A DNA stretch of 64,000 nucleotides, taken from a virus. The stretch lies in the IMG/VR virus record IMGVR_UViG_3300009161_000033, positions 1-64,000 of that record, one strand, 5' to 3'. Below, in pieces: positions 1 through 64,000 of the stretch (position 1 is the stretch's first letter; each line of letters opens with the position of its first letter). A program made the translations under genes and the position numbers. A model generated the notes under the pieces. It saw only the letters and a program-made list of their open reading frames with translations. It did not search any database and was not told the DNA's origin.

Positions 1-936
1 ACACCTACTATTTCATTAACACCTACAAGAACGGTTACACCTACAATTACACCTACTGTAACACCTAGTACACCATATTCATTCTTCCTCACTAAAAACT
101 GTTGTACTAATCTTGTTGACACTATCTATTTACCGACATCATCCGTAATAGGTTCAGTTTTTATTGATACTTCAGGAGTTTGTCAACAAATAACATCAAT
201 CGGAGGAACAGTTGCAACTGTTATTTGGAACGGAGGGGTTTCTTATGCAACATGTGTCTCGTGTACAGGGGTGAACGTGTGTCCTACCCCAACACCTACC
301 CCAACAAAAACTACAACTCCTACACCAACCCCAACAAAAACTACAACTCCTACACCAACACCAACGGCAACCGCAACTTGTATAACATATACTATAACTT
401 CAGGTACTTTAGGAGCAAGAGTTTCATTTAATGGTTGTTGTCGTAACTCAGGAGAAACAAGTTTAATATTGCCAGCATCAACAGGATTTCAAAAATGTTC
501 AACAACTCTACCTGTTGTAACTAATGGTACCGCAACAATTACATCGGGAGGAGCTTGTCCTTCTTGCGATGATGCTATTGTTACAATTAATTACAGAACA
601 TCAAATGGTGGTTTTACAACTAATCAAACAGGAACTTTAAGTTACACATTGAACGGTGGTTCCCCCGTAACATTATCCACAACAATTGCATCAAACCATG
701 GTACTCTTTATGTTGGAGTACCTCCAAATATTTCTTGTAATTATGGTGACATTTTAGTCTTTAACTTTGTGGCAAATACGGGAGGAAATAACTCTTGGGG
801 TCAAGGTAATTCAGGTCCTTATAATAACATTGGTTGTTTTGGAAACACATACACATATAATGTACTATCAACAGGAGCAATCTCTTTATATTTCAATATC
901 ACATCCCTAAATACGATATGGGGGTCAACTTGTTAA
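1..936 (+). CDS. Pro/Thr-repeat (mucin-like), Cys-rich putative virion surface protein, 5'-truncated by the window edge
   Basis: Frame 1 is open from base 1 (TPTISLTPTRTVTPTITPTVTPS...) to TAA at 934-936, so the track ORF at 271 is only its C-terminal part. TPTPTPTKTT linkers separate small Cys-rich domains. Confidence 0.75.
   Translation, partial: TPTISLTPTRTVTPTITPTVTPSTPYSFFLTKNCCTNLVDTIYLPTSSVIGSVFIDTSGVCQQITSIGGTVATVIWNGGVSYATCVSCTGVNVCPTPTPTPTKTTTPTPTPTKTTTPTPTPTATATCITYTITSGTLGARVSFNGCCRNSGETSLILPASTGFQKCSTTLPVVTNGTATITSGGACPSCDDAIVTINYRTSNGGFTTNQTGTLSYTLNGGSPVTLSTTIASNHGTLYVGVPPNISCNYGDILVFNFVANTGGNNSWGQGNSGPYNNIGCFGNTYTYNVLSTGAISLYFNITSLNTIWGSTC
301..360 (+). repeat. 30-bp tandem duplication encoding PTKTTTPTPT x2
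   Basis: ccaacaaaaactacaactcctacaccaac(c/a) occurs at 301-330 and 331-360, 29/30 identical. Confidence 0.95.
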
Positions 937-993
937 TTTAACAAATCTATTTATTTTAGGTAAATTCTCATTATTTTTTCCATAAAAAGAAAT

Positions 994-2241
994 ATGAAAA
1001 TTTTTGTTCAGATTGCATCTTATAGAGACCCGCAATTAATTCCAACAATCAAAAATATGTTTGAGAACGCCAAAAAACCTAAAAATTTGGTGTTAAGTAT
1101 TTGTAGACAATATCATCCTGAGGATGGTTTTGATAACCTTGATGAATATAAAAATAATAATCAGTTTAGAATTATTGATGTTTTATATTCAGAATCAAAA
1201 GGTGTATGTTGGGCAAGAAATTTAACTCAACAACAATATAGTGGTGAGACTTACACTTTACAGATAGATTCACACATGAGATTTGAAAAGAATTGGGATG
1301 ATACTCTAATCAAAATGGTTAAACAACTACAGAAGAAAGGATTCCCTAAACCATTATTAACAGGGTATGTATCATCATTTGACCCTGACAATGACCCTCA
1401 AGGAAGAGTACAAGAACCATGGAGAATGGGGTTTGATAGATTTATCCCTGAAGGTGCAGTTTTCTTCTTACCTGAAACAATTCCTGGATGGAAAGAAATG
1501 AAAGAACCTGTGACCGCAAGATTCTACTCCGCTCACTTTGGATTCACAATAGGTAAGTTTAGTGAGGAGGTCCAACACGACCCTGAGTTCTATTTCCATG
1601 GAGAAGAGATTTCAATCGCTGCAAGAGCTTATACACATGGGTATGATTTATTCCACCCTCATAGAGTTGTGATTTGGCATGAATATACTCGTAAAGGAAG
1701 AACCAAACAATGGGATGATGATAAAGAATGGGTTAAGAAAAATGATGTTTCCCACTCTAAAAACAGACAACTATTCGGAATGGATGGTGAAGAGGTTACA
1801 TTAGACTTTGGTAAATATGGTTTTGGAACTGAAAGAACTTTAAAAGAATATGAAATATATTCAGGTTTAAGATTTTCAAGAAGAGCGGTTCAACAATACA
1901 CATTAGATAAGCAATATCCACCTAACCCTCAAATATTTGAAACCGAGGAAGAATGGGAAAGTAGTTTTGCAAGTATATTCAAACATTGTATTGATATTGG
2001 GTTCCATCAGGTTCCTGAAAAAGATTATGAGTTTTGGGTTGTCGCTTTCCATGACGAAAAAGACGAAACTCTTTTTAGAAAAGATGCTGATATAAGTGAA
2101 ATTAATAGAATGATGACCGACCCTGACGGATACTGTAAAGTATGGAGGGATTTCCAAACGGCACATAAACCAAAATATTGGGTCGTATGGCCTTATAGTA
2201 CATCAAAAGGTTGGTGTGAAAGATTAATAGGAAATTTATAA
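994..2241 (+). CDS. Glycosyltransferase, GT60-like (Skp1/polypeptide alpha-GlcNAc transferase family)
   Basis: N-terminal IFVQIASYRD, SKGVCWARN, DxH motif QIDSHMRF, FHGEE and WHEYTR match the Gnt1/GlcNAc-transferase family pattern. Confidence 0.8.
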   Translation: MKIFVQIASYRDPQLIPTIKNMFENAKKPKNLVLSICRQYHPEDGFDNLDEYKNNNQFRIIDVLYSESKGVCWARNLTQQQYSGETYTLQIDSHMRFEKNWDDTLIKMVKQLQKKGFPKPLLTGYVSSFDPDNDPQGRVQEPWRMGFDRFIPEGAVFFLPETIPGWKEMKEPVTARFYSAHFGFTIGKFSEEVQHDPEFYFHGEEISIAARAYTHGYDLFHPHRVVIWHEYTRKGRTKQWDDDKEWVKKNDVSHSKNRQLFGMDGEEVTLDFGKYGFGTERTLKEYEIYSGLRFSRRAVQQYTLDKQYPPNPQIFETEEEWESSFASIFKHCIDIGFHQVPEKDYEFWVVAFHDEKDETLFRKDADISEINRMMTDPDGYCKVWRDFQTAHKPKYWVVWPYSTSKGWCERLIGNL

Positions 2242-2243
2242 AT

Positions 2244-2618
2244 ATGAAAATGCCAATTAGTGAAATATTAGATAGATATTCTATTGCGATATTAAAAAGA
2301 GAAAGAGCCGACGCTGAAAACTCTAAAGAAATTAATGATTTACAATCAGAGATTGATAAGTATTCCGAAGAACATTATGAGTTCATTAACCAAAAAATTA
2401 AAGATTTAATTGAGGTTAATGGTAATATTTGGGATTTAGAATCCGATATCCGTAAAGGTAAGGAAGGTGAATTAGGTTTAGAGGAAGTTGGTCGTAGAGC
2501 CATAAAAATACGAGAATTTAATAAAGTTAGAATCACTTACAAAAATAATGTTGTTGATTATTTTGGGGAGGGGTATAAAGATATTAAAATGAATCATGTA
2601 AGTAGTGATGATAAATAA
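2244..2618 (+). CDS. Small helical conserved protein (DUF6165-like)
   Basis: PISEILDRYSI...L.EVN..IWDLE.DIR...A..I...N..R pattern, typical of a small protein found in glycosyltransferase clusters. Confidence 0.55.
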   Translation: MKMPISEILDRYSIAILKRERADAENSKEINDLQSEIDKYSEEHYEFINQKIKDLIEVNGNIWDLESDIRKGKEGELGLEEVGRRAIKIREFNKVRITYKNNVVDYFGEGYKDIKMNHVSSDDK

Positions 2619-3426
2619 AATTGTAGTAACATTAACAACCGTCCCTGAAAGACTATCTTATCTTGTTGAGGATGGGTTTAAATTAGTGGTCCAATCAATC
2701 TGTGAACAAAATCATAACAACTATGAAGTTCATTTAAATCTACCTAACGTTTATTCTGTAACAGGGGAGTTTTATTTAATACCCGAGTGGTTAGATGAAT
2801 TCCAAGGTAAATACGGACACTTAAAAATATTTAGGACTGAAGATATGGGTCCACCAACCAAAGTTATACCAACCATACTTAGAGAAATACCAGATACTTT
2901 ATTAATTGTTGTTGATGATGATTTAGTTTATCATCCCGATATGATTAACGAACATATAAAATATCATGAAGAACTACCAAATTCAGTTATGTTGTATGAT
3001 GGTAGAGGTTTAATTGGTGATAGATTTAATGATTTAAGAGATTCATGGATTATTTGTGTAACCAAACCTACAAGAATTAGTGGATTGTTACAACATTATA
3101 AATCGGCGTCGTATTTTGTGAGGTATTTTGAACAGGACTTCTATAATGATTTTGTTGGTAAAACAAAATCTGATGATATTCTTATGACTTATTATTTCTT
3201 ATTTAAAAAAATAAAAATGTATGTTATACCATATGAAAAAGATAACGATAAATTGTTAACCTACGACAATTGGTACAACTTCCAAGGAGTTACTACATTC
3301 CCTGTTACAAGACATTCTAATAGTCTCGGAAACACAGGTTGTAACCATCCAAAAATATTAGAATTAGAAACTAAATTTTTCATACCTGAAGAATTTAAGT
3401 TTATAGATAAATTACCTTTAGATTAA
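2605..3426 (+). CDS. GT-A fold glycosyltransferase
   Basis: IVVTLTTVPERL N-terminus, DMGPPTKVIP, DxD motif VVDDDLVY, and SDDI. Confidence 0.75.
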   Translation: MMINKIVVTLTTVPERLSYLVEDGFKLVVQSICEQNHNNYEVHLNLPNVYSVTGEFYLIPEWLDEFQGKYGHLKIFRTEDMGPPTKVIPTILREIPDTLLIVVDDDLVYHPDMINEHIKYHEELPNSVMLYDGRGLIGDRFNDLRDSWIICVTKPTRISGLLQHYKSASYFVRYFEQDFYNDFVGKTKSDDILMTYYFLFKKIKMYVIPYEKDNDKLLTYDNWYNFQGVTTFPVTRHSNSLGNTGCNHPKILELETKFFIPEEFKFIDKLPLD

Positions 3427-3429
3427 AAA

Positions 3430-4119
3430 ATGGAATATTTTGAAAAAGTAAAATTATGGGACGATGAACATTGTGAAAAACATGTTTGGAACCTTGCTAA
3501 TAATATGAAAGAATTATTACAATCAAAAAACATAAATGAATTACATTATCTTGACATTGGGGCTAATGTGGGTAAGGTATATGATTTAATGAGTAACGGT
3601 TATACTGTTAAAAAAGTATGGATGTATGAAGCGAGTCCGATACTTTTTGATTACTTAAAAATTAAGTATACTAATGATGAACGAGTCGTAATAAATAATA
3701 TTGCAATCTCTGATTCTGAAGGCGAAGTTAATTTTGACGAATCCTCAATTATACATCAAATTGAAACTAACTCTCCTGATTTAAATTTTGGGTTGTCTAA
3801 GATAGGTAATTCACCCGCACAAACTAAAGTAAAATCTAATAAGTTAAGTAATCTTATAAGTGGCAATAATGAAATTTTAGATAATGTAACTTTTATTAAA
3901 ATTGACACTGAAAACGTTGACTTTAATATTTTAAATGATTTAGTAACAATAATTGATAAATTTAAAACAAAACCAATTATTGAGTTTGAGGTTAATTACC
4001 ACATGGGACCAATAACTAAAGAAATTGCACAATCTATATTAAATAAGTTCTCAAACATAGGATACAAAGAATTGAAATTAGAGGATTGTTGGGGTGACGG
4101 AATTTTAATACCTGAATAA
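3430..4119 (+). CDS. FkbM-family SAM-dependent methyltransferase
   Basis: LDIGANVG, YEASP, NIAISD, FIKIDTE, PIIEFE. Confidence 0.85.
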   Translation: MEYFEKVKLWDDEHCEKHVWNLANNMKELLQSKNINELHYLDIGANVGKVYDLMSNGYTVKKVWMYEASPILFDYLKIKYTNDERVVINNIAISDSEGEVNFDESSIIHQIETNSPDLNFGLSKIGNSPAQTKVKSNKLSNLISGNNEILDNVTFIKIDTENVDFNILNDLVTIIDKFKTKPIIEFEVNYHMGPITKEIAQSILNKFSNIGYKELKLEDCWGDGILIPE

Positions 4120-4120
4120 T

Positions 4121-4807
4121 ATGATAGAAGAAATTTTAAAAATTGCTAAAGAGTTTAATCAAATCCCTAAGAAATATTGGGAAACGATTAGTTTAACAGG
4201 ACCTCAACATGACTTTGAGAGAAGTAAGCCAGGACCTTACCTAAAAAAGTCGGCAGAAATTGCTAGATTATTAGGAATGAAAACTGTGGTTGAGATTGGT
4301 GCGACAAGATTCGCATTATCTCAAAAATGTTTGGATTATTATAATTCAGATATGAATCCATTTGTCTCCCCACCATGTTGTGCCGATGGTCACGGAGGGA
4401 TTATTTGGACTATTGAAGGTTTTGATGTTTACTCCTGTGACATAGACCCTAATTGTAGAACACAGGCAGAATGGTCATTTGGTAATATTAACCAACCATT
4501 TCCTGATAATTTACATTTACATATTCCTGAAGATGGGATTGAGTTTCTAAGAAACTTTGATAAAAAAATTGACGTGTTATTTTTAGATGGTTGGGACACA
4601 GGGACTCACGAATATCGTGAAAAACACCTTGAGTCATTTGAGGTCGCTAAAGATAAATTATCTGAGACCCATTTAATATTGATTGATGATACGGATTTCA
4701 ATATTGACGGGGAAGGTAAAGATGCTTTCTTATCCCCACATTTATTATCGTTAGGTTATATTTTATTATTTGACGGAAGACAAAAATTATACATTAATAA
4801 AATTTAA
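4121..4807 (+). CDS. Class I SAM-dependent methyltransferase (Methyltransf_24-like)
   Basis: VVEIG, YSCDID, IDVLFLDG, LILIDD. Confidence 0.7.
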   Translation: MIEEILKIAKEFNQIPKKYWETISLTGPQHDFERSKPGPYLKKSAEIARLLGMKTVVEIGATRFALSQKCLDYYNSDMNPFVSPPCCADGHGGIIWTIEGFDVYSCDIDPNCRTQAEWSFGNINQPFPDNLHLHIPEDGIEFLRNFDKKIDVLFLDGWDTGTHEYREKHLESFEVAKDKLSETHLILIDDTDFNIDGEGKDAFLSPHLLSLGYILLFDGRQKLYINKI

Positions 4808-4810
4808 GAT

Positions 4811-6484
4811 ATGTTAACATTAGTAACAGGTTTATGGGACTTAGGAAGAGGTGAACTAACTGAAGGTTGGTCAAGGTCGTATGAAAATCATTATTTGACT
4901 AAATTTAGTGAATTACTAAAGACGGAGAATAACCTCATCATTTTTGGAGATTCCGAATTAGAAAAATTTGTGTGGGAGAGAAGAGATGATTCAAATACTC
5001 AGTTCATTAATAGAAGTTTAGATTGGTTTAAAAATAATGAATTTTATAACAACATTCAAAAAATTAGAACTAACCCTAATTGGTTTAATCAAGTTGGGTG
5101 GTTAAAAGAATCCACGCAAGCAAGGTTAGAAATGTACAATCCACTTGTTATGTGTAAAATGTTTTTATTACATGATGCAAAAATCTTAGATAAATTCAAT
5201 TCTGAGTATATGTTTTGGATTGACGCAGGATTAACTAATACTGTTAGTTCGGGATATTTTACTCATGATAAAGTAATTGATAAATTACCTAACTTAATTA
5301 ATAAATTTACATTTATTACATTTCCTTATGAAACAACTTCCGAAATACATGGGTTTGAATTTAATAAAATATGTGAGTTTGCGGGTGACGTAGTTAATAA
5401 AGTTGCCAGAGGAGGATTTTTTGGAGGACCTAAAGAAACCATAACCGAAACTAATAATTTGTATTATCAATTACTTTCAACAACATTATCAAGTGGATAT
5501 ATGGGAACTGAAGAAAGTATCTTCAGTATTATGTTATACAAATACCCAATGTTATTTGATTATTCAGAGATTGAAGGTAATGGTTTGATATGGTTATTTT
5601 TTGAAAACATTAAGAACGGTGATATAAAACTTAAAAATGAGAAGTCAGGTAATGAGATTGTTAAGGTTACCAACATGAGTAAAGTCGGGTTGTATGTCAT
5701 CGGATTCAATAGTCCTAAACAATTTGAGACCTTATTATTCTCAATGAAAAAGTACGATTCAAATTTCTTAGACAAACCTAAAAAATATTTGTTAGATAAC
5801 TCAACAGACCTTTCAACTACTGATAGATATCTTGAACTTTGTAAGGAATATAATTTTGAACATATTAAAAAAGATAACTTGGGTATTTGTGGGGGAAGAC
5901 AATTTATTGCGGAACACTTTGATAAAACAGATTTAGAATATATGTTCTTTTTTGAGGATGATATGTTCTTCTACCCAAAACAAGGAGATGTTTGTAGAAA
6001 CGGATTTAACCGATATGTTGACAACCTATATACCAAATCCCTCTCAATTATTAATAAAGAAGAGTTGGATTTTATTAAACTCAACTTCACAGAATTTTAT
6101 GGGGATAACTCAACTCAGTGGAGTTGGTATAATGTACCCCAAGTTGTTAGGGAGGTGATATGGCCAAATAATAAAAAATTACCTGTACAAGGATTAGACC
6201 CGAATGCTCCGAGAACAAAATTTGAATCCATTAAAACTCATAATGGGATACCATACTCAACAGGTGAGATTTATTATTGTAACTGGCCTCAGATAGTTTC
6301 AAAAGAAGGTAATCGTAAAATGTTTTTAGAAACAACATGGGGACACCCTTTTGAACAGACGTGGATGAGTCACATCTTCCAAGAAACTGTGAAAGGTAAA
6401 ATTAAATCAGGAATACTTTTATTAACACCAACAGAACACGATAGGTTTGATTTTTATGATGGTTCTTTAAGAAAAGAAAGTTAA
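4811..6484 (+). CDS. Two-domain glycosyltransferase: HtrL/YibB (WlaTC)-like N-terminal domain plus GT-A C-terminal domain
   Basis: TLVTGLWDLGR, FWIDAG, GGFFGG and GTEE in the N-terminal half; LLDNS, NLGICGGR and FFEDD in the C-terminal half. Confidence 0.7.
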   Translation: MLTLVTGLWDLGRGELTEGWSRSYENHYLTKFSELLKTENNLIIFGDSELEKFVWERRDDSNTQFINRSLDWFKNNEFYNNIQKIRTNPNWFNQVGWLKESTQARLEMYNPLVMCKMFLLHDAKILDKFNSEYMFWIDAGLTNTVSSGYFTHDKVIDKLPNLINKFTFITFPYETTSEIHGFEFNKICEFAGDVVNKVARGGFFGGPKETITETNNLYYQLLSTTLSSGYMGTEESIFSIMLYKYPMLFDYSEIEGNGLIWLFFENIKNGDIKLKNEKSGNEIVKVTNMSKVGLYVIGFNSPKQFETLLFSMKKYDSNFLDKPKKYLLDNSTDLSTTDRYLELCKEYNFEHIKKDNLGICGGRQFIAEHFDKTDLEYMFFFEDDMFFYPKQGDVCRNGFNRYVDNLYTKSLSIINKEELDFIKLNFTEFYGDNSTQWSWYNVPQVVREVIWPNNKKLPVQGLDPNAPRTKFESIKTHNGIPYSTGEIYYCNWPQIVSKEGNRKMFLETTWGHPFEQTWMSHIFQETVKGKIKSGILLLTPTEHDRFDFYDGSLRKES

Positions 6485-6531: not shown

Positions 6532-6963
6532 ATGGAGTTTTATATCAAAAAAAACGCAACCCTACCCATAATTAAATTACAGGTTGTTAAAGACGGAAGA
6601 AGTGACTACAACAATTTCATGGACTTGATTGAGGTGTCAGCACTATTCTTTTCTATGGTTGACGTTGAGACGGGCGTACCAAAGATAACTTCTCGTCCTG
6701 CAGGTTTTGTGGAGAAAACTTTCATAGAGCCAAATGCAACACCTGAATACTACATTTATTATCAATTTACAAATAGAGACACAAGTAAAGTCGGTAGATT
6801 TGAAGGTCAGTTTATGTTAAGAAGTGATGATGGTACTTTAATTTTACCAATCAGAGAAAAACTTTATATTAACGTACAAGATTCATTTATTGCTGACGAT
6901 TTAGATTATGAAACTTGTTATTCTTCTGAATTCCCTTGTTGTGTTAACGGACCAATCCTTTAA
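6532..6963 (+). CDS. Putative structural protein (BppU-N/Ig-like)
   Basis: FYIKKNATLP...YQF...DT...G.F.GQF pattern; preceded by the TATTTAT motif. Confidence 0.45.
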   Translation: MEFYIKKNATLPIIKLQVVKDGRSDYNNFMDLIEVSALFFSMVDVETGVPKITSRPAGFVEKTFIEPNATPEYYIYYQFTNRDTSKVGRFEGQFMLRSDDGTLILPIREKLYINVQDSFIADDLDYETCYSSEFPCCVNGPIL

Positions 6964-11356: not shown

Positions 11357-12895
11357 TCAATTCAATGTATAAATTAAATCTTCTTCAGGGAAAACATATG
11401 ACCCACCAACAATCTTAACGTTTTTATTATCAAAAATTAAGACCTCTTTATTTTTTCTTGAGAATACCATCCAAGATGTGTGATATTTTTTAACCTGTCC
11501 CGTATCCAATACAATTATGGTTCCTTTTTCTTTTTTAACACGACTAAATGGTTTTATTTGAGCAGTATATTCAACATTATCAACAGTTACCTTACAGTCA
11601 ATACCCCCTAGCATATCTTCTTTGTTACCTAATTCACCAATTTGTTCAACATTATCATCACCAAATTTTTTTTTCATAACTTTGACAGTATAGTCTTCAG
11701 TTTCACTACCCATATCATGGGTAATACCTAAAGTCGCCATTAAATTTTGGAAAGTGCCTGACTCAGGTGTAAAAATTCTATCTTTATATTCGTTTAACTT
11801 CTTAACAAATTTTTTAGTTTCACTAATTTGTTCAAAAGGTTTTAAACCAATTATTTTTATTTCAGGCTGACCATAATGTTTTAACACTTTATTAATGTCA
11901 GTCAATAGAATGCAGAAACAAGTGTAGTTAGTATTAAGTTTGTTGATAACCGACCTACCAGTCCCCTCAAAATCGTATATACCCGACATTTGACCTTCAC
12001 CATATTCATTAGCTTTATAAAAGTTATCAGGAAAGACACTTTTTAAAATATCCTCAATCCCGTATCTAAATGTATTTTTAACTTTTGGATTAATATTGAA
12101 AACAAAACGAATTGCTTCGTTCATATCTCTACCACATTTTTCAGACTTACCTTCAGACAAAACGTTTCTTAATGAAACTGTCTCATTTAATTTTTTCTTA
12201 ACACGTAAATCAAGTAACTCATTAACAAATTTCCAATTAACACATTTCCAAAAGTTTTTAATGTATTCATCTTTTTTGTTACGGTACTTTAGATAATATG
12301 CGTGTTCCCATAAATCTAACCCTAACACAGGATACCCACCATTTTCAACAACGTTCATTAATGGATTATCTTGATTGGGGGTTGAAATAATTTTTAAAGT
12401 GTTTCGTTTAGTTAGAACCAACCAAACCCATCCTGAACCAAAACGTTCTTTAGCTATCTCCTCAAATTTAACTTTGAACTTTTGAAATGTTCCAAAATTT
12501 TTCTTAATTAATTCTAAAATTTCTCCTGAAGGTGACTGTGTTTTAGGAGATAACATTTTCCAAAATAACGCGTGATTAAAAGCACCACCAGCGTTATTTC
12601 TAATTGTTTTATCAAATTTACTAATTGATTTGATAATTTCTTCTAACTCTAAATCTCCATAATCTTTCTTGGATAAAGCGGAATTTAATTTTTCCACATA
12701 ACCTTTATAATGTTTATTATAATGGTACTCCATTGTTTCGGCATCAATAAATTGTTTTAGTGATGAATAGGCGTAAGGTAATTTTTCAATCCCTATTTTT
12801 TTCATTTCAGTTAGAAAGAGAGTTTGGTTTTCTTTTTTCTCTTCAATGATTAACTGTTCTGTAATTAAGTTAATCTTCTCTTCTATTTTTTTCAT
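11357..12895 (-). CDS. sodA: Mn/Fe superoxide dismutase fused to a C-terminal putative PD-(D/E)xK-like domain
   Basis: LPYAYSSL, HYNKHY, NNAGGAFNHALFW, FGSGWVWL, TPNQD and DLWEHAYY (all four metal ligands present), followed by about 270 extra aa containing GIDC...TAQIKP. Confidence 0.9.
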   Translation of the reverse strand: MKKIEEKINLITEQLIIEEKKENQTLFLTEMKKIGIEKLPYAYSSLKQFIDAETMEYHYNKHYKGYVEKLNSALSKKDYGDLELEEIIKSISKFDKTIRNNAGGAFNHALFWKMLSPKTQSPSGEILELIKKNFGTFQKFKVKFEEIAKERFGSGWVWLVLTKRNTLKIISTPNQDNPLMNVVENGGYPVLGLDLWEHAYYLKYRNKKDEYIKNFWKCVNWKFVNELLDLRVKKKLNETVSLRNVLSEGKSEKCGRDMNEAIRFVFNINPKVKNTFRYGIEDILKSVFPDNFYKANEYGEGQMSGIYDFEGTGRSVINKLNTNYTCFCILLTDINKVLKHYGQPEIKIIGLKPFEQISETKKFVKKLNEYKDRIFTPESGTFQNLMATLGITHDMGSETEDYTVKVMKKKFGDDNVEQIGELGNKEDMLGGIDCKVTVDNVEYTAQIKPFSRVKKEKGTIIVLDTGQVKKYHTSWMVFSRKNKEVLIFDNKNVKIVGGSYVFPEEDLIYTLN

Positions 12896-15242: not shown

Positions 15243-15538
15243 TGGATATACTAATCACAGAAAATCAGGTTGACGTATTAAGAAGGTTACACGAGATAGG
15301 TAAGATTGTTGACTATGTTATTGATTCGTTGAATGATGACATTAAACTAGGAGGGCCAGGTAATAAACCTGACAACTTCGGTGTGTATGAAAATTGGGTT
15401 AGTCAAAGAGTTAGTTCAATGTTTAAACGTAGATATCCCGATATTGATTTTGATAAATATGATTTTCGGTTGATTGTGTCAGGACAACATAATGATGAAC
15501 TTAGAAAAGGTTTTAATAAAGTTAGAAAGAGAAAATGA
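15242..15538 (+). CDS. Hypothetical protein with MDILITENQ leader
   Basis: 98-aa ORF coupled to both neighbours (TAATG, ATGA). Confidence 0.7.
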   Translation: MDILITENQVDVLRRLHEIGKIVDYVIDSLNDDIKLGGPGNKPDNFGVYENWVSQRVSSMFKRRYPDIDFDKYDFRLIVSGQHNDELRKGFNKVRKRK

Positions 15539-16083
15539 AAATTATAATTACAGAAGAACAAAGAAAAATGATTCTTGAATCTGTTACAAATAATGAAGTA
15601 ATTTGTGACAAATGTGGATGGGAATGGGATTTATCTGATGGAGGTGAAGACCCCTATATCTGTCATGAATGTGGACATAACAATTTCAAAGAAGATTACC
15701 GAGGAAAACGTGTTATGGTTTATTATAATTTACACAAACATACTTTTTCGGTTACTTATGACTCAATTGTTATAATGCACGCCGACTATGTTAAGTTAAA
15801 AGATGTTGAGTTTAGAGTTAGACAGGGGGGTAAAGAAAAAGTTAGAGGAGAAAAAAGAAAGAACGTTCACGCGTTTGTTATTGGAACATTAGTTGATTAT
15901 TGTAAATATCCTTGTGAAAATATGCCTGAAGAAAGTAACGATAATATTGTTACTTACGACCCATACAAGTATGATAGTTTTGTTTATAAGTCAACTAAAG
16001 AACCTGTTTATAGAGCCAAAGAGGTTGATATGGTTAACCAAAAAAATAAATTATTCGTCATTAACGAAATAAGACAATATTAA
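15535..16083 (+). CDS. Hypothetical protein: MKIIITEEQ leader, Zn-ribbon, and conserved phage domain
   Basis: CDKC-x13-CHEC, then VYYNLHK...KNVHAFV...YDPYK. Confidence 0.7.
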   Translation: MKIIITEEQRKMILESVTNNEVICDKCGWEWDLSDGGEDPYICHECGHNNFKEDYRGKRVMVYYNLHKHTFSVTYDSIVIMHADYVKLKDVEFRVRQGGKEKVRGEKRKNVHAFVIGTLVDYCKYPCENMPEESNDNIVTYDPYKYDSFVYKSTKEPVYRAKEVDMVNQKNKLFVINEIRQY

Positions 16084-17406: not shown

Positions 17407-20400
17407 ATGGCAACAAACAACAAAGTATTCGTATCTCCTGGAGTGTATACCTCTGAAGTTGATTTGAGTTTTGTAGCACAAAGTGTAGGTGTTACAACTT
17501 TAGGTATTGTTGGTGAGACTTTAAAAGGTCCCGCTTTCGAACCTATCTTTATCAGAAACTTCGATGAGTTTTCATCATATTTTGGAGGAACATCTCCTGA
17601 AAAATTCATAAACACTCAAATACCTAAATACGAAGCGGCTTACATCGCTAAATCTTATTTACAACAATCTAATCAATTGTTCGTAACAAGAGTATTAGGT
17701 TTGTCAGGTTATGATGCTGGACCATCTTGGTCAATTACTACTAAAGCAAACGTTGACCCATCAACAGTAAATTTTTATTGTGAAAGTGCAACAACTATTG
17801 ATTGTGTTACAGAATGTATAGATATATTAACGGTTGATTTCGAGATTGATTTCACAGGTTGTACTGATAGTACATCAAGTATTACATTTACAAACCCATC
17901 TCAAATCCCAACAATGATTGCGGATAGACTTAATTTACCATACGAAAATTTTGACGGTAGTGTTACAACTTTAAATAGTGGAATGCTTAACCAAATATTT
18001 GGTGTTATGAATGACGTTGACCCGTTCACTGCTGAAACAGTAAATATTAATTATTATGGTACTATTGATTCTAATGATTATAACTCATTGTCTACTCAAT
18101 TTACCGATGAAACAAATGTTTTAGGTGTTCCAAGTGTAAGTTCAGAATTAGAAGATTATTCAGCACCACAAAATGACCCTTGGTATTACGCATTATTTGA
18201 TAATTTAGGTAGTGGTAATTATAGTGGTTATTCATATTGGTCAATCGTTTCAGGTTTAACTGATATCACGACTACTACGACAACAACTAGTACGTCAACT
18301 ACAACTACAACAACTAACCCTTGTGTGACACCAACACCAACGTCAACTACAACAACTACAACTGCAAAACCTGTTAAATGTTTCTCAGGTATTTTGAAAG
18401 GTAGAGTTTATGTTTACTCAGGTATGTCATTTACTGATTATGATGATTTGGTAGTTGCAACTTTACGTTCAAGAGGTTTAGCGACTTACGGTAGTGATGA
18501 CGGAGCGGTTTATGAAGTAACAGGATTGACAGATGTACAAATGGTTTGTACTAACCAATATTCAGGTGTTACTAAAAACCCATACTCAACATTTGCATTA
18601 AATGTTACAAATAATGACGGACAACAATTCTTCTTTGAAACTTCATTGTCTAACTCAGATAGTAAATACATTGCTAAAGTATTTGGACAATCTAATTTTG
18701 CAAAACCAAAAGATGTTGTTCCTGTATTTGTTGAAGAAAGATTCCAAACGTTATTAACTTACGGTTATAGAAAAGGATATATTAGAGGTTTAAGTTGTGA
18801 CTTAACTGCTTTACCTGATGCTAGACAAGGTGTTGACCCAACGTCAATCGCTTGGTACTTAGAAAAATATCAATCTCCAACATCACCTTGGGTTGTTTCT
18901 GAATTAAGAGGTACTAAAGTGTACAACTTATTTAGATTTACAACTATTGCTGATGGAGACGTTGCGAATACTGAAGTTAAACTTTCAATTGCAAACATTT
19001 CATTTAACAATGGAACATTTGACGTTCTTGTAAGAGACTTCTTTGATTCAGATAACAATCCTGTAGTTATTGAGAAATTTACTAACTGTACAATGAACCC
19101 TAATGATAATAGTTTTATCGCTAAGAAAATTGGTACTTTAGACGGTGAATACGCATTGAACTCAAAATACATTATGTTGGAAATTAATGAGGATGCTCCG
19201 ATTGACGCATTACCTTGTGGATTCCAAGGATATAACTTTAGAGAATATGCAGGTGTAAGACCTCCATTCCCAATTTATAAAACTAAATACGATTACCCAG
19301 GTGAAGTGGTTTATGACCCACCATTCGGTTTGTCTTCAGGAGCTAATGACTCAAGAACAAGTCCTGGTGACAATGTTCGTAGAACTTATTTAGGTATCTC
19401 TGACACTATTGGTATTGATGTTGACTTCTATTTATATAAAGGTAAACAATTACCATTAGATGTTTGTACAGATATTACAGGTGACGATTGGGCTTACAGA
19501 ACAAGAGGTTTCCACATGGATATTAACGCAAGTGGTATCACAATTCCAAACGGATTTGCAACAAGTGGGACACCAGCATACTATGTAGGTTCTGCACCGT
19601 TTACTTCAGACCCTGAAAATGAGTCTAACCCTTATTACAGATTATACGCTCGTAAATTCTCATTACTATGTCAAGGAGGATTTGACGGATGGGATATCTA
19701 TACAGAACATAGAACAAATGCTGATAAATTCATGTTGGGTAAACAAGGTTATAAAAATGGGGCTTGTCCTTCATTCAAATATCCAACTGCAACAGGATGG
19801 GGAGCGTTCAAACAGATTACTGTTGGGAACAACTCAACTGATTTTGCAAATACTGACTACTACGCTTACTTATTAGGACAACAAACATTCTCTAATCCTG
19901 AAGCGGTAAACATTAACGTATTCGTTACTCCTGGTATTGATTATGTTAACAACCCTAACTTAGTGGGTGACGCGATTGAGATGATTGAGTTTAACAGAGC
20001 TGACTCAGTTTATATCTGTACAACTCCTGACTATAACATGTTTGTTCCTACAACAGGTAACCAATTAGATTTGATTTACCCACAAGAGGCGGTAGACAAT
20101 TTAGAGACTGCAGGAATTGACTCTAACTACTCGGCAACTTATTACCCATGGGTATTAACAAGAGATACTGTTAACAACACACAAATCTATCTTCCACCAA
20201 CTGCGGAGGTAACAAGAAACTTGGCGTTAACAGATAACATCGCTTTCCCTTGGTTCGCTGCGGCGGGTTACACTCGTGGTATTGTAAACGCAATCAAAGC
20301 GAGAAAGAAACTTACTCAAGAAGATAGAGATACTCTATACAAAGGTAGAATCAACCCAATTGCAACCTTCTCTGATGTAGGTACTGTAATTTGGGGTAAC

Positions 20401-20742
20401 AAAACTCTACAAATTAGAGAGTCTGCACTTGACAGAATTAACGTAAGAAGATTGTTATTACAAGCTCGTAAGTTGATTTCAGCGGTTTCAGTAAGATTGT
20501 TGTTTGAACAAAATGACCAAAAAGTAAGACAAGATTTCTTAGATGCGGTTAACCCTATCTTAGATGCAATCAGAAGAGACAGAGGTTTATACGATTTCCG
20601 TGTAACAGTTTCTTCAGACGTGGCTGACTTAGACAGAAACCAAATGACAGGTAAAATCTATATCAAACCAACTAAATCTCTTGAGTTCATAGACATTACG
20701 TTCTACATTACTCCAACAGGTGCATCGTTTGATAATATCTAA
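17407..20742 (+). CDS. Contractile tail sheath protein (gp18-like) with large insertions
   Basis: FVSPGVYTSEVD N-terminus; YYPWV, PWFAAAGYTRG, INPI, WGNKTL, DRINVRRL, LFEQND, IYIKPTKSLEFIDITF. Confidence 0.95.
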   Translation: MATNNKVFVSPGVYTSEVDLSFVAQSVGVTTLGIVGETLKGPAFEPIFIRNFDEFSSYFGGTSPEKFINTQIPKYEAAYIAKSYLQQSNQLFVTRVLGLSGYDAGPSWSITTKANVDPSTVNFYCESATTIDCVTECIDILTVDFEIDFTGCTDSTSSITFTNPSQIPTMIADRLNLPYENFDGSVTTLNSGMLNQIFGVMNDVDPFTAETVNINYYGTIDSNDYNSLSTQFTDETNVLGVPSVSSELEDYSAPQNDPWYYALFDNLGSGNYSGYSYWSIVSGLTDITTTTTTTSTSTTTTTTNPCVTPTPTSTTTTTTAKPVKCFSGILKGRVYVYSGMSFTDYDDLVVATLRSRGLATYGSDDGAVYEVTGLTDVQMVCTNQYSGVTKNPYSTFALNVTNNDGQQFFFETSLSNSDSKYIAKVFGQSNFAKPKDVVPVFVEERFQTLLTYGYRKGYIRGLSCDLTALPDARQGVDPTSIAWYLEKYQSPTSPWVVSELRGTKVYNLFRFTTIADGDVANTEVKLSIANISFNNGTFDVLVRDFFDSDNNPVVIEKFTNCTMNPNDNSFIAKKIGTLDGEYALNSKYIMLEINEDAPIDALPCGFQGYNFREYAGVRPPFPIYKTKYDYPGEVVYDPPFGLSSGANDSRTSPGDNVRRTYLGISDTIGIDVDFYLYKGKQLPLDVCTDITGDDWAYRTRGFHMDINASGITIPNGFATSGTPAYYVGSAPFTSDPENESNPYYRLYARKFSLLCQGGFDGWDIYTEHRTNADKFMLGKQGYKNGACPSFKYPTATGWGAFKQITVGNNSTDFANTDYYAYLLGQQTFSNPEAVNINVFVTPGIDYVNNPNLVGDAIEMIEFNRADSVYICTTPDYNMFVPTTGNQLDLIYPQEAVDNLETAGIDSNYSATYYPWVLTRDTVNNTQIYLPPTAEVTRNLALTDNIAFPWFAAAGYTRGIVNAIKARKKLTQEDRDTLYKGRINPIATFSDVGTVIWGNKTLQIRESALDRINVRRLLLQARKLISAVSVRLLFEQNDQKVRQDFLDAVNPILDAIRRDRGLYDFRVTVSSDVADLDRNQMTGKIYIKPTKSLEFIDITFYITPTGASFDNI

Positions 20743-57105: not shown

Positions 57106-57895
57106 TAAATTTTTATTTACCATTCCAAAAGGAAACAAAACAATTGATTTACCAATAGAAATTAAATGGGATTTTTATGGTAGAGATGATAGTATTGAAC
57201 TGTATGAGGAAGAAGTTTTAGTTGATATTATTGGAGTCCCTAAAGATTTTGAAATTTTAAGATTTAGTCATAATTCTTATATTCCTTATGAAGAAACCGC
57301 AATAAAATATGATTTTTATTTTTATAGTGGGGTGTCAAGTAATGTTAGTGCGTCAACATCAACTGATTGGGTTAATAGTTATTTAGCTGAAGGATTTCAA
57401 GCTGATGAAGTGTATTACTACACCAAACCATTTACTAAGTCATTTTTTAAACTTGATTTTTACGATACTAAAGAAGCCCAAAGTCAAACAAATTATTTTA
57501 CAATTATAATACCTGTACAACAAGGTGCGACTGAAAATGTAAGTATTTCACCACTAACCCCTAATGTTAATATTAGAATACCATCATATAAATTAGATTT
57601 TGTTGGAGATAAGGAAGGGTTTTTTATTTATTGGTTAAAAAATGAATTATTCCTTAACATTGATACTTTTTATATGACCGCAAAATTCTTTGACGGTAGA
57701 TTAGGTGTCTTTGTTAAGATGATGAACGAACCACAATCATCGTTACCTGATAAATTCAACTTTGACGCTAGCCGTTATTTTTATAACAAAGTGGTTTTAG
57801 ATTACACAACAAAAACTTATGAAGTGTTTAATTATTTAGATAACCGAATAGGTACGGGAACACCGATAAAATGGTATGAATATGTTAACCCATAA
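57098..57895 (+). CDS. Putative structural protein
   Basis: 265-aa ORF with GTG start overlapping the previous gene; coupled to the next gene (TAATG). Confidence 0.6.
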   Translation: MSNKFLFTIPKGNKTIDLPIEIKWDFYGRDDSIELYEEEVLVDIIGVPKDFEILRFSHNSYIPYEETAIKYDFYFYSGVSSNVSASTSTDWVNSYLAEGFQADEVYYYTKPFTKSFFKLDFYDTKEAQSQTNYFTIIIPVQQGATENVSISPLTPNVNIRIPSYKLDFVGDKEGFFIYWLKNELFLNIDTFYMTAKFFDGRLGVFVKMMNEPQSSLPDKFNFDASRYFYNKVVLDYTTKTYEVFNYLDNRIGTGTPIKWYEYVNP

Positions 57896-59082
57896 TGGAC
57901 GATAGATATTACAGTATACGAATTTCACCTGAAGTTATTCGTGGGGATTTATTCACGACACCGTATAATGCGGGGTATTCTCAATTTAATTTAAGTGGAG
58001 ACCCATGTTGTGATACAACCACAACAACAACGACAAGTCAATACACTGGATTTACCTATGTTTATTCATCAATGACTCAAGTCTTGACAGGTGGTACAGA
58101 TGGGACATCTTTATTAACAGGTTTAACTCTACCAATTTTTCTTACTGAGAATACGGTTGATATTGGATATTATTCGGTATTTGACGGAATGGTTACTCAA
58201 AAAGATACCATGACAAACTTTTTGTTTTCTGCAACAACATACGACCCGTTTACATATTATTTTTATAATACATCAGATACAGAATTTAAAAAATATCTTG
58301 CCTTTGCCACCTATCAGATTGATTGGGGGGATAGTTCACCAAGTGAAATAGTTAGTACTACTTCTCCGAGTTATTACAGTCATACTTACGCGTCTGCGGG
58401 TGTTTATACGATAACAATGTCGGGGATGAGTCCTTGGGGTTATAATGTAATTAAAAAAGATGTCACAGTTCCGTTCACAAATGTTGTTGCAACCAACCCT
58501 AATGGGACTGCCTATTTTTACCCATCAGGAGGTAATTGGACAGGAACACCATTAATGTATGATTACATATTCACAGGAGATTCTAATTGTGATATATATG
58601 ACCAATCAAGTTACAATTATACAACAGTACCATTCTTAGTTACAGGGTATACAAATTCAACCATGAGTGATTTAGTTCAATATGGAAGTAAGTACGACCC
58701 AACAAGATTTTCAGGTAAGTACAAACTTGGAGTACAGGTAACAGGAACGTCAGGGAGTATTGGAACATTTTGGGGTCCATCTGTGGATAACTTATATACT
58801 GCCTATACAATTAATGACATTAACTACTATGATTATAATGACGGAACAACAATTTTTACGGTTTATTCATCAGGGATGACACCTGACATGATGGTTTGTT
58901 CGGCAATAACAAAAAATGAGGTATTATTAAACGTAATTGATGAAGCAGAAATACAATCCAATGTATTTATAGAACGAGGGAAGAACTCTGTTTTAGAAAG
59001 GTTGGAGAGATTAGGTGAAGTTGATAATGTTGGAGACCTTGAAAAATACGGATACAAATTCTTTAATGTAATTAATATATAA
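57895..59082 (+). CDS. PKD-domain structural protein with a poly-Thr tract
   Basis: YQIDWGD...SHTYASAGVYTIT PKD signature; PCCDTTTTTTTS. Confidence 0.7.
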   Translation: MDDRYYSIRISPEVIRGDLFTTPYNAGYSQFNLSGDPCCDTTTTTTTSQYTGFTYVYSSMTQVLTGGTDGTSLLTGLTLPIFLTENTVDIGYYSVFDGMVTQKDTMTNFLFSATTYDPFTYYFYNTSDTEFKKYLAFATYQIDWGDSSPSEIVSTTSPSYYSHTYASAGVYTITMSGMSPWGYNVIKKDVTVPFTNVVATNPNGTAYFYPSGGNWTGTPLMYDYIFTGDSNCDIYDQSSYNYTTVPFLVTGYTNSTMSDLVQYGSKYDPTRFSGKYKLGVQVTGTSGSIGTFWGPSVDNLYTAYTINDINYYDYNDGTTIFTVYSSGMTPDMMVCSAITKNEVLLNVIDEAEIQSNVFIERGKNSVLERLERLGEVDNVGDLEKYGYKFFNVINI

Positions 59083-62900: not shown

Positions 62901-63012
62901 TTTAACAAATACCAACACAGTTATTGTATACAACCAATCATGTTCACAATTAACTAATGGTATTAATTTTAAACTGAATGTTGGAATAAACTTTAAAATC
63001 TTATGTAGTTAA
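59992..63012 (+). CDS. Baseplate wedge-like protein (P2 gpI/T4 gp7-like domain)
   Basis: IP..LLKNLAQTLGW...YRNLILN...LFKSKGTRKSIE.LL..IG signature. Confidence 0.65.
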   Translation: MAVKKYTCPPQSATGAGTFSDNLVGLQLVAGGGLTQGNFNFITSTNEKTNRTFSTGTFSDPINLDSLGINSINQSKSIVENNFKVYPNFDLSQVTNFTMYGSMSKRMSASITTIISYFPAGIESTYMGSNYVSGPTAVNIVYNITDDETSFDLDVTRLRNPFDVDFTTNSTRNLQLKEVQVSPLRDMTLQYTKYSLYFKGDGYNVTGIVPTTGLTNGTLKVYVTGNPFSGEPITNENLVIRPNDMEVNKVFNEELDEVENFLLNRNVTPKYTSVFKVPRENEDGTYYIQNLNTTWPLYGSWNIDIVTKAFSSYLTIINDVSDSFDLYKTNLVSRFLTTGAFKEFDTSEHKVEKVLQVYGKSFDDIKKYITALSFMTSVNYNVGNDIPSQLLKNLAQTLGWATNISPISETELLNSVFGEKNSNTSVYPGVSQEQTPDSLNYQYYRNLILNSAYLFKSKGTRKSIEILLRLIGAPEALIEFNEHVYLADQKINLNQFNTQFAQISGGTYVQQIPILDSTDIYSIFGLPYTGFTTTSDIQDVNITIDEYPMDSYGFPMTPTNSESYFFQMGSGWFEQTPQHRAPEQVDLTNSIFVGNNPNYQTVLMPYSYGQEYLNRYRKFPFMNLGYQLTKAIDNNKSWVDNEVGIRSNLDGNFNARYYTSDERLVLNVKNVDLFMNPAQGIAYDIWYMSQQYNYPIPNEGLNYVTPTYCDPKPYSPYPSIGGVDWTEINPQPKRKTFFEFAQTFWLNTINVRNRQFSSNGKTGGYPTLESIFWRYLQSDETIGIPNDNFTYKTMMEYVNGLGDYWIRLIEQMVPATTIWNTGVKLENSIFHRQKFVWRRQEGCQLIKVPCKPCSIISNLFDYDCPLESVECPIYPWTNNPTIQDFGGVLGQLLTNYLTANSYSLNDCDFNGMTTEWFVDLQLNDYSVVRYSFFNGIGYSSPIYSTPTTSQWNSGLLIALNSLEDNGYGYYLTNTNTVIVYNQSCSQLTNGINFKLNVGINFKILCS

Positions 63013-64000
63013 TGTCTTGTTTATTGACTTATACAAATAGTATAACAGGTGACTGTTTAAATGATTTATCGGGTGCGTTTAGCATTGATATTGCAGGTAG
63101 TGCTCCTGATTACAGTATTGAATGGATTAGTCCTTTTATAGGAACCATCTTTTTGGGACCTGGAGTTAGTAATTATACTCAAACAGGGTTATCAGGTGGG
63201 ACATACTCGTTCAACATCATTGATAGTTGTTCCCCGACAAATACGACATTAGCGGTGAACGTAAATATTTCCACAGGGACTTGTGTGAGTATTACAAGTG
63301 AGACAAATACTGTATGTGGTTTAAATAACGGAGCCTTAACTGCTACTACAACCAACATGTATTCCGAAGCTAAATTTTATTTATATGAATATAGTTCAGG
63401 TTATATAACTTCAGGAACAAGTTTTACAGAATCTTATAGTTTTGGTTCTTTATCAGGAGGAACATATTATGTGATTGCGGATGACGGAGGAGGATGTACG
63501 GGTAAATCTGAGACATGTATTATTAAAGAATCAAGTCCTCTTGAAATTGGTTTATATGTTATTAATGATGCGGGATGTGCCGTTAATTCAGGTGCTATTT
63601 ATATCACAGGATTAACAGGTGTACCACCTTACACTTATTTATGGAGTAACGGTGGAACATTACAATCAATAACGGGTTTAACTGCTGGACCTTATAGTGT
63701 TACTGTTACAGATAGTTCGGGGTGTGCTCAAAGTAGTGGTGTTACAGTTAATACAGTACCCCCCATTGGATTAGGTGCGTTTACTGTTGTAACTCCAAGT
63801 TGTTTCGCTTCTGACGGTGAAGTAACCGTGACAATAACAGGTGGGACTGCTCCGTTTTATTATTCAGGTTCAAATGGAACAGTTGCGGTTAGTTTTGCAA
63901 CTTCTTATACTTTTGTTGGTGTTCCTGCAGGAATGTTTTCAGTACATGTAACTGACTCGGGATTATGTAGTTTTACTTCGTCAACAACTTTATTAACACC
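63012..64000 (+). CDS. SprB-repeat adhesin-like tail fibre protein, 3'-truncated (absent from the ORF track)
   Basis: ATG overlaps the previous stop (TAATG). The frame is open to the window end and encodes MSCLLTYTNSITGDC... with repeats such as G.PPYTYLWSNG.....ITGLTAGPYSVTVTDSSGC and C..SDGEVTVTITGGTAPF.Y. Confidence 0.8.
   Translation, partial: MSCLLTYTNSITGDCLNDLSGAFSIDIAGSAPDYSIEWISPFIGTIFLGPGVSNYTQTGLSGGTYSFNIIDSCSPTNTTLAVNVNISTGTCVSITSETNTVCGLNNGALTATTTNMYSEAKFYLYEYSSGYITSGTSFTESYSFGSLSGGTYYVIADDGGGCTGKSETCIIKESSPLEIGLYVINDAGCAVNSGAIYITGLTGVPPYTYLWSNGGTLQSITGLTAGPYSVTVTDSSGCAQSSGVTVNTVPPIGLGAFTVVTPSCFASDGEVTVTITGGTAPFYYSGSNGTVAVSFATSYTFVGVPAGMFSVHVTDSGLCSFTSSTTLLT

Follow-up and report, generated by a model that had tools for sequence, protein, structure and literature searches.

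A hypervariable glycosyltransferase island behind a Thr/Pro-repeat gene in freshwater jumbo phages and its candidate role in O-glycosylation of fibre-type proteins

The first 64 kb of a 92,036-bp IMG/VR contig (IMGVR_UViG_3300009161_000033; this whole stretch of 64,000 nucleotides is hereafter called the window) opens with the 3' part of a gene for a threonine/proline (Thr/Pro)-repeat protein, followed directly by a cassette of six genes, most of them for glycosyltransferases (GTs) and methyltransferases. Comparison of this cassette with its counterparts in related viral loci revealed that the conserved unit is a pair of bracketing transferases, a GT60-type enzyme on the left and a double transferase with an HtrL domain on the right, around a set of fast-changing glycan enzymes. 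We favour, with modest confidence, the reading that the enzymes of this bracketed hypervariable island O-glycosylate, in the cytoplasm, Thr/Pro-repeat proteins of fibre type that the phage itself encodes. A search of IMG/VR with the GT60 protein recovered 360 related loci, a large clade, and the relatives analysed here are the best 80 of these, 74–93% identical.

All six open reading frames (ORFs) of the cassette lie on the plus strand, at 994–2241, 2244–2618, 2605–3426, 3430–4119, 4121–4807 and 4811–6484, and the spacings between them are, in order, +2, −14, +3, +1 and +3 nt. The preliminary description had presented them as a tightly coupled six-gene cassette, and its coordinates and coupling (−14 to +3 nt) hold. 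The six-gene set is nevertheless not a conserved unit, because only the GT60 gene and the HtrL double transferase gene are conserved and the inner four genes are one of many variants. The 80 relatives share a common frame, which runs from GT60 through a variable stretch of 0.6–7.5 kb to the HtrL double transferase, then to a gene that we call orf143 (which gave nothing usable in Pfam up to E 5) and on to the family-B DNA polymerase (PolB) gene. From 76 of these loci we collected 253 inner ORFs, which fall into 73 gene clusters. Transferases among these clusters are of the GT25, GT2, GT10 (fucosyltransferase-like), GT34-like and GT7C types, the methyltransferases are of the rhamnosyl-O-methyltransferase/CmcI, FkbM and FtsJ-like types, and sugar-modifying enzymes are represented by an NAD epimerase and a DegT aminotransferase. 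Only a few loci combine the window's four inner genes.

In every one of the 80 related loci the island is bordered on the left by the gene found here at 994–2241 (plus strand), which encodes a GT60-type glycosyltransferase with an extra C-terminal region of ~120 aa and is the candidate initiating enzyme. Its product matches PF11397 ('GlcNAc') with 244 bits (cut-off 21; E 3e-72) over profile positions 2–350 of 352, and phrog_24687 of the PHROG collection with E 7e-172. The DxH...H metal-binding motif, formed by D92-S93-H94 and H229, is invariant across 39 diverse GT60 homologues (35–49% identity), and with this score and the catalytic motif retained the earlier GT60-like assignment is upheld. 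Sequence searches of the PDB with the single GT60 sequence and with the 39-sequence profile found no relative. The domain is widespread, with 4557 cluster representatives at E <= 1e-3; four proteins of 1600–2460 aa (P0124, P0125, P0126 and P0132) carry up to four GT60-like stretches each. Characterised members of GT60 are polypeptide alpha-N-acetylglucosamine (GlcNAc) transferases that start mucin-type O-glycans in protists, and their acceptors are Thr in mucin-like domains or the hydroxyproline of Skp1 (PMC8724618). The likeness of the phage enzyme to these protist CAZy GT60 proteins (Dictyostelium Gnt1 and the T. cruzi pp-alpha-GlcNAcT) consists in the Pfam family and the DxH...H motif; unlike them, it comes from a viral/bacterial group of proteins and has the C-terminal region of ~120 aa added.

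The right border (4811–6484, plus strand) encodes a tandem double glycosyltransferase in which an HtrL_YibB domain (PF09612; 63.1 bits against a cut-off of 24.1, E 4e-17, residues 2–255) is joined to a second GT-A domain. A Pfam search up to E 5 with the C-terminal half of the protein (residues ~290–557) returned nothing usable, and a PDB sequence search with the HtrL protein returned no match. The AlphaFold model (26 homologues, pLDDT 80.8) contains two GT-A domains, and its best PDB matches in Foldseek are dual GT-A enzymes, namely LH3, mimivirus R699, LARGE1, K4CP, COLGALT1 and PmHS2 (heparosan synthase 2), with E values of 7e-11 to 1e-6 for LH3, R699, LARGE1, K4CP and PmHS2. The fusion of HtrL and GT-A domains that had been read from the sequence is therefore borne out by the Pfam score, the model and the Foldseek matches alike. 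The likeness to LARGE1, K4CP, PmHS2, LH3/COLGALT1 and R699 suggested by the model lies in two GT-A domains per chain; TM-scores are low (~0.25) because the domain arrangement differs, and sequence identity is 8–12%. Three motifs of the HtrL protein are invariant, WIDAG (D138), LLDNSTD (N330/S331/D333) and FFEDDM (E382-D383-D384), and the latter two are compatible with a GT2-like site. Each of the two GT-A domains thereby has an acidic metal-binding motif. Among ~7000 metagenomic homologues some are fused to FkbM or TylF-type O-methyltransferases, and tailoring enzymes are therefore linked to this transferase.

What ties the island to mucin-like repeats is the gene directly upstream of GT60. 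In the window this is the ORF at 1–936 (plus strand), the 3' part of a modular, Cys-containing Thr/Pro-repeat protein that is truncated at its 5' end by the end of the contig and is a candidate acceptor; its translation contains the mucin-like TPTPTPTKTT linkers that the preliminary description had placed just upstream of the cassette. Among 79 loci, 62 have Thr/Pro tracts in the ORF that immediately precedes GT60 on its strand at a distance of ~50–90 nt, which amounts to 47 of the 62 distinct proteins; of the remaining flanking genes of those loci ~8% carry tracts. Homologues of ORF 1–936 are found among these upstream genes (L015–L017). Tract-bearing proteins are 101–3214 aa long, and one of 1776 aa has 68% of its residues in tracts. 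Many upstream proteins possess an N-terminal domain of ~70 aa that is paralogous to the N-termini of genes in a fibre module further along the contig (71698–72729 and 74666–74884), where the fibre-module genes adjoin baseplate genes, and in one relative (L087) the upstream gene is itself a homologue of a fibre gene with SprB repeats. No signal peptide was found in the upstream proteins and Pfam (up to E 5) gave nothing usable for the upstream gene; a PHROG search with the fibre-module and upstream proteins yielded families of unknown function and a single weak Hoc-like match.

The same pair of transferases recurs in cultured phages of a very distant lineage. Only four isolate phages carry a GT60 homologue, XacN1, Xoo-sp13, CM1 and RAS14, and in this group the GT60 (46–50% identity) and the HtrL double transferase (39–41%) are orthologous to those of the window. 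XacN1 and RAS14 carry both in one cassette, which in XacN1 is ORF334–ORF330, at 49% and 41% identity, respectively. The likeness extends to tailoring genes between GT60 and HtrL, to an adjoining module of baseplate and large-protein genes and to many genes with Thr/Pro tracts; the XacN1 cassette abuts baseplate wedge genes and a gene for a 3313-aa protein with Thr/Pro tracts. Between the two transferases XacN1 and RAS14 have a carbamoyltransferase and further ORFs, one of which has its homologue in the inner gene that occurs most often in the clade. The inner genes of XacN1 are a carbamoyltransferase and two ORFs whereas those of the window include a GT-A transferase and two methyltransferases, and XacN1 further differs in its lineage (PolB is barely alignable), in the phylum of its host and in that its Thr/Pro gene is not directly upstream. 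Yoshikawa 2018 observed at least two Schiff-positive bands among XacN1 virion proteins and proposed the phage's GTs as their makers (PMC5852040). That study did not identify ORF330 as a transferase and did not name the Schiff-positive proteins (PMC5852040).

The preliminary description had asked whether Thr/Pro-rich genes and the cassette occur together, and across genomes they do. Each of five near-complete relatives has 22–39 copies of a TPTPTPT-coding pattern, XacN1 has 16 and RAS14 has 6, with 0–1 matches for reversed-pattern controls, and the copies fall in long ORFs. No such tract was found in five PF11397-negative myophages (1.2 Mb, including Flavobacterium and Stenotrophomonas phages). 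Tracts are thus present in seven of seven GT60-positive genomes and in none of the five GT60-negative control myophages. In the reverse direction, PF11397 was detected in 11 of 44 IMG/VR contigs picked by a long Thr/Pro-coding pattern; this test shows only that tracts occur without GT60, because the contigs are mostly fragments from the same clade and the pattern also catches opposite-strand (GV)n repeats, as in the complete 108-kb phage G022. Two candidates for independent lineages, G022 and G020, were set aside as suggestive only: the GT60-like gene of G022 lies by a portal gene without a Thr/Pro tract, and in G020 the Thr/Pro gene lies elsewhere on the contig than the GT60-like gene. We also noted that in G022 the short GT60-like gene, near the portal gene, adjoins a gene for a 735-aa PASTA-domain protein (L219:10332–12539, minus strand) with long (GV)n repeats and a C-terminus that by eye is Hint/intein-like. 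In G020 (L220:13614–16000, minus strand) a short GT60-like gene stands beside a carbamoyltransferase and a GFO/IDH/MocA oxidoreductase, a GT60–carbamoyltransferase pairing shared with XacN1.

Within the source genome Thr/Pro tracts occur in seven proteins, the tail sheath included. The earlier claim that Thr tracts recur was accurate: a Thr-rich insertion occupies residues 285–322 of the sheath (18259–18372 on the plus strand, in the gene at 17407–20742), and a 395-aa protein (57895–59082, plus strand) has a T7 run (CCDTTTTTTTSQY). Sheath residues ~290–320 are variable among relatives (L305–L308), being Thr-rich in one and replaced by longer, unrelated inserts in three (sheath ORFs of 1194–1271 aa). 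A gene that occupies 63012–64000 of the window (plus strand) and extends beyond it to position 65636 of the contig encodes a fibre-type protein of 874 aa with SprB repeats and a Thr/Pro linker of 97 aa. Past the end of the window the fibre module comprises four further genes with Thr/Pro tracts and one gene, at contig 65851–66861 (L013:3851–4861), for a 336-aa protein located between two tract-bearing SprB-repeat genes. Homologues of the latter were found in 208 IMG/VR loci, and Thr/Pro tracts occur in 31% of the genes that flank them (80 relatives). A Pfam search with this ORF gave no match; the model of its product (pLDDT 90.2) has a GT-A fold nearest to UGGT, glycogenin and XXYLT1 (GT8/GT24-like) and an HDADII (DxD) motif that is invariant. 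Kinship with HPAT/SGT1, to which a row of the Atlas pointed (HPAT in 10% of members), was rejected after none of 30 homologues matched Pfam HPAT; we call the protein only a GT-A transferase, because HPAT matches are nil and the fold is GT8/GT24-like. One relative's copy (L247:6001–7011) has an in-frame stop codon. As judged from sequence, transferases thus appear linked to tract-bearing genes both through the gene upstream of GT60 and through this GT-A enzyme inside the fibre module.

Adjacent GT60 and HtrL genes are also present in bacteria of many phyla, among them Gemmatimonadota, Acidobacteriota, Lewinellaceae, a Neisseriaceae isolate and Tepidamorphus. We found no recurrent partner in the bacterial neighbourhoods of the pair, and the function of the bacterial module appears to be undescribed. 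Since the adjacent pair occurs in bacteria, the phage module is derived from, or shared with, a bacterial two-gene module. In the Neisseriaceae isolate the pair encloses two inner genes, as in the phages (L310–L389 set, e.g. L324:7989–10972 and L345:7989–12620).

The O-glycosylation that we favour would proceed as follows. In the cytoplasm of the infected cell GT60 would add the first sugar to Thr in the Thr/Pro linkers of fibre-type proteins, the chief acceptor being the product of the gene just upstream of GT60. Enzymes of the variable island would then extend and decorate the glycan, here a GT-A transferase and two methyltransferases and in relatives GT2/10/25/34-like transferases, carbamoyl- or methyltransferases and amino-sugar enzymes, and the double GT-A protein would add two more linkages or a repeating unit. 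The outcome would be mucin-like glycoproteins whose glycan differs among closely related phages. Of the glycan coat on virion proteins that the preliminary description had proposed, the enzyme content is retained and the link to Thr/Pro repeats is strengthened (62 of 79 loci against ~8% of other flanking genes), whereas the six-gene unit is not upheld and the argument from an upstream TATTTAT motif (see below) and the case for the sheath as acceptor are weakened. More tentatively, these phages may produce mucins of their own. Such fibre-type proteins would reach ~3200 aa, with as much as two-thirds of the length in Thr/Pro repeat; GT60 would start their glycan, the LARGE-like double GT might build a repeating chain, and quickly exchanged tailoring enzymes would give each strain a coat of its own, a viral parallel to the diversity of O-antigens under selection by host receptors, defences or grazers.

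Several observations weigh against this interpretation. The glycan, its sugar donor and its acceptor are predictions; the upstream protein likely resides on the virion, a placement suggested by its paralogy to fibre-module genes. Thr/Pro tracts are absent from the upstream gene at 17 of the 79 loci. The Thr tract of the sheath is kept in one of four complete relatives, and for this reason the fibre-type Thr/Pro-repeat proteins are likelier acceptors than the 'tail/baseplate proteins' first suggested. The GT60-positive genomes are not independent samples because they represent only two phage lineages, and the tracts do not need GT60, since they are also present in complete smaller phage genomes that lack it (G011, G025, G037 and G041). 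To our knowledge the bacterial PF11397 members are uncharacterised. Bacterial GT60–HtrL pairs lie in mixed contexts without a neighbouring Thr/Pro gene, twice beside Bac_transf/GT4 polysaccharide genes, and because the pair is so widespread in bacteria without such genes its ancestral job need not be mucin-type glycosylation. Finally, the HtrL and GT25 families were named after lipopolysaccharide (LPS) loci.

These last points lead to the main rival, in which the island remodels the host's surface polysaccharide (LPS, capsule or exopolysaccharide) and so, for example, blocks superinfection or the trapping of progeny on lysed cells, its variability tracking host glycans. Besides the LPS-derived names of HtrL_YibB and GT25 and the existence of the bacterial pair, twice next to Bac_transf/GT4 genes, it can draw on the resemblance of conserved flanks and a variable interior to O-antigen and capsule loci, and surface remodelling is how Iyer et al. 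2021 read the polymorphic GT clusters of jumbo cyanophages (PMC7824862). We consider it improbable here. None of the six cassette genes encodes a flippase, a polymerase, an initiating phosphoglycosyl transferase or a membrane protein, and no membrane-like segment was found in the six proteins (top 19-residue hydropathy 1.2); characterised GT60 enzymes act on polypeptides (PMC8724618) and virion proteins of XacN1 stain as glycoproteins (PMC5852040), while the conserved position behind a Thr/Pro-repeat gene would be left unexplained. A little less probable again is some other cytoplasmic target, be it a phage protein outside the particle, such as the upstream mucin-like protein at work within or beyond the cell, host proteins or a soluble methylated oligosaccharide. 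The self-contained bacterial pairs in unrelated contexts suggest a product that needs no export genes, and PHROG and Pfam give the upstream protein no structural annotation, but its N-terminal domain is common to fibre-module genes beside baseplate genes, the upstream gene of L087 is an SprB-repeat fibre homologue, and the glycoproteins of XacN1 are in its virions (PMC5852040).

It is very improbable that the transferases hypermodify the bases of phage DNA with a methylated glycan and thereby evade restriction, even though phage GTs that build diverse glycans on DNA are known (as cited in PMC12619734), the island adjoins a DNA polymerase gene and relatives encode a ThyA-family enzyme. That ThyA has the canonical thymidylate-synthase motifs (PFNIASY and GDVHLYENH) and is separated from the island by more than 100 kb, interpretable digests of XacN1 DNA were obtained with BssHII, NaeI and SpeI, GT60 is a family that acts on polypeptides (PMC8724618), and no known DNA glycosyltransferase family was matched in Pfam or PHROG, in a source genome that is ~31% complete.

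Several known systems bear comparison with the O-glycosylation proposed here. In Gram-positive bacteria the loci of serine-rich-repeat adhesins combine a Ser/Thr repeat gene with a cytoplasmic initiating GlcNAc transferase (GtfA/GtfB) and with extending transferases that are strain-variable and in some cases two-domain. By analogy these loci would be the closest model for how the island works; they differ in that GtfA/B are unrelated GT-B enzymes, in their accessory Sec export and in that their products are bacterial adhesins rather than phage proteins. Chloroviruses and giant viruses (e.g. PBCV-1) glycosylate structural proteins in the cytoplasm with machinery that includes methylated sugars and GT–methyltransferase fusions, but chloroviruses have eukaryotic hosts, atypical N-linked glycans on their capsid proteins and different enzymes. 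In the mycobacteriophages of Freeman et al. 2023 the glycans are reportedly attached to capsid and tail-tube subunits at their C-terminal tails, by enzymes from other families; these phages are said to have no GT60, double GT-A, Thr/Pro-repeat fibre proteins or hypervariable bracketed island. The likeness to mycobacteriophages (Freeman et al. 2023, as cited in PMC12619734) lies in phage GTs located by structural genes and in cytoplasmic O-glycosylation of virion proteins that is proposed or shown. The chlorovirus parallel was also drawn by the authors of the XacN1 study (PMC5852040).

The four inner genes of the window, all on the plus strand and all part of the variable island, are annotated with differing firmness. 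The 124-aa ORF at 2244–2618 is of unknown function: it has no Pfam match, no DUF6165 (PF19662) match having appeared up to E 5, and its earlier 'DUF6165-like' label stands as a mere lead. This weak DUF6165/DUF4254 lead comes from a language-model resource (Atlas), which connects it to viral clusters of which 16–33% carry DUF6165. Homologues of this ORF and of the next gene co-occur in ~9 relatives and form a single ORF in L047. That next gene (2605–3426) probably encodes a GT-A glycosyltransferase, and we call it nothing more specific; PF00535 scores 22.5 bits against a cut-off of 23.3, and the 273-aa product has a weak PDB match to KfiA (E 0.024). The FkbM methyltransferase at 3430–4119 is confirmed, with PF05050 above its curated cut-off (32.5 bits against 22.7, E 1e-7) and a match to phrog_8156 (E 8e-15). 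The gene at 4121–4807 is probably a second, S-adenosylmethionine-dependent methyltransferase (PF13578, 22.3 bits, cut-off 26.3; phrog_24975, E 8e-11). The earlier calls of a GT-A enzyme and a second methyltransferase thus survive as probable, helped by KfiA and PHROG, with Pfam scores under the cut-offs, and the count of four GT domains in the cassette likewise stands with one domain (2605–3426) marginal.

A TATTTAT motif is present at 948–954 (plus strand), 39 nt before the GT60 start. Its total in the window is at chance level (44 against 47 expected), but within 60 nt upstream of starts there are 21 sense and 5 antisense copies, and intergenic copies number 24 against 6.7 +/- 2.6 after shuffling. 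Because it is concentrated and oriented just before starts, TATTTAT is a real upstream element and, judging from this placement, probably a promoter. The sense copies precede 20 genes, structural and non-structural alike, the latter including a DnaB-like helicase gene at 41869, a gene for a superoxide dismutase fusion (11357–12895) and the gene at 6532 before PolB. Since non-structural genes are preceded too, the motif, whose presence before the cassette had been used to link it with structural genes, does not single these out.

The source phage is a freshwater jumbo phage. CheckV estimates the contig to be ~31% complete, from which we derive a genome of ~300 kb, and the window has a GC content of ~33%. 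The window encodes a family-B DNA polymerase, an SNF2 helicase, the superoxide dismutase fusion, a tail sheath, baseplate wedge proteins, a ribonucleotide reductase and a DnaB-like helicase. In the fusion (minus strand) an Fe/Mn superoxide dismutase domain is joined to ~270 residues without a family match, and at 15535–16083 there is a Phage_L5_gp82 domain protein (PF25735, E 2e-29), in a phage with Bacteroidota-type features. A Bacteroidota-type module, the SprB repeat, is found in two fibre-type genes of the contig, and among binned genomes the closest GT60 copies are in metagenome-assembled genomes of Saprospiraceae, Lewinellaceae and Cytophagaceae. A DNA-level similarity search against isolate phages gave no match; by sheath, the nearest isolates are the Microcystis phage Mel-JY01, an uncultured 484-kb phage and the Flavobacterium 'immuto' phages. 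The freshwater origin, the SprB repeats and a glutamine synthetase in one relative make it plausible that the clade is the published 'moraphage' lineage. In that relative (G003; L302:31–1206 and 1486–2604) a glutamine-synthetase-like gene adjoins a canonical ThyA, and glutamine synthetases are a listed trait of freshwater 'moraphages'.

Few phage groups are documented to have glycosylated particles, and little is understood of what the glycosylation does. Phage-made virion glycoproteins in a GT60/HtrL context were already proposed for XacN1 (PMC5852040); the present analysis adds a conserved layout with a hypervariable interior, a mucin-like neighbouring gene, the identification of the HtrL protein as a double GT-A enzyme and the size of the clade. 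An abundant environmental clade of jumbo phages now offers a testable architecture of acceptor-like gene, initiator, variable island and double transferase, and XacN1 provides a cultured system for testing it. Should the proposed O-glycosylation prove true, the mucin-type chemistry of protists and animals would also exist in bacterial viruses, the surface glycans of phages would diversify like bacterial O-antigens, and a function would emerge for the bacterial GT60–HtrL pair, uncharacterised to date, with a bearing on phage adhesion, stability and immune recognition.

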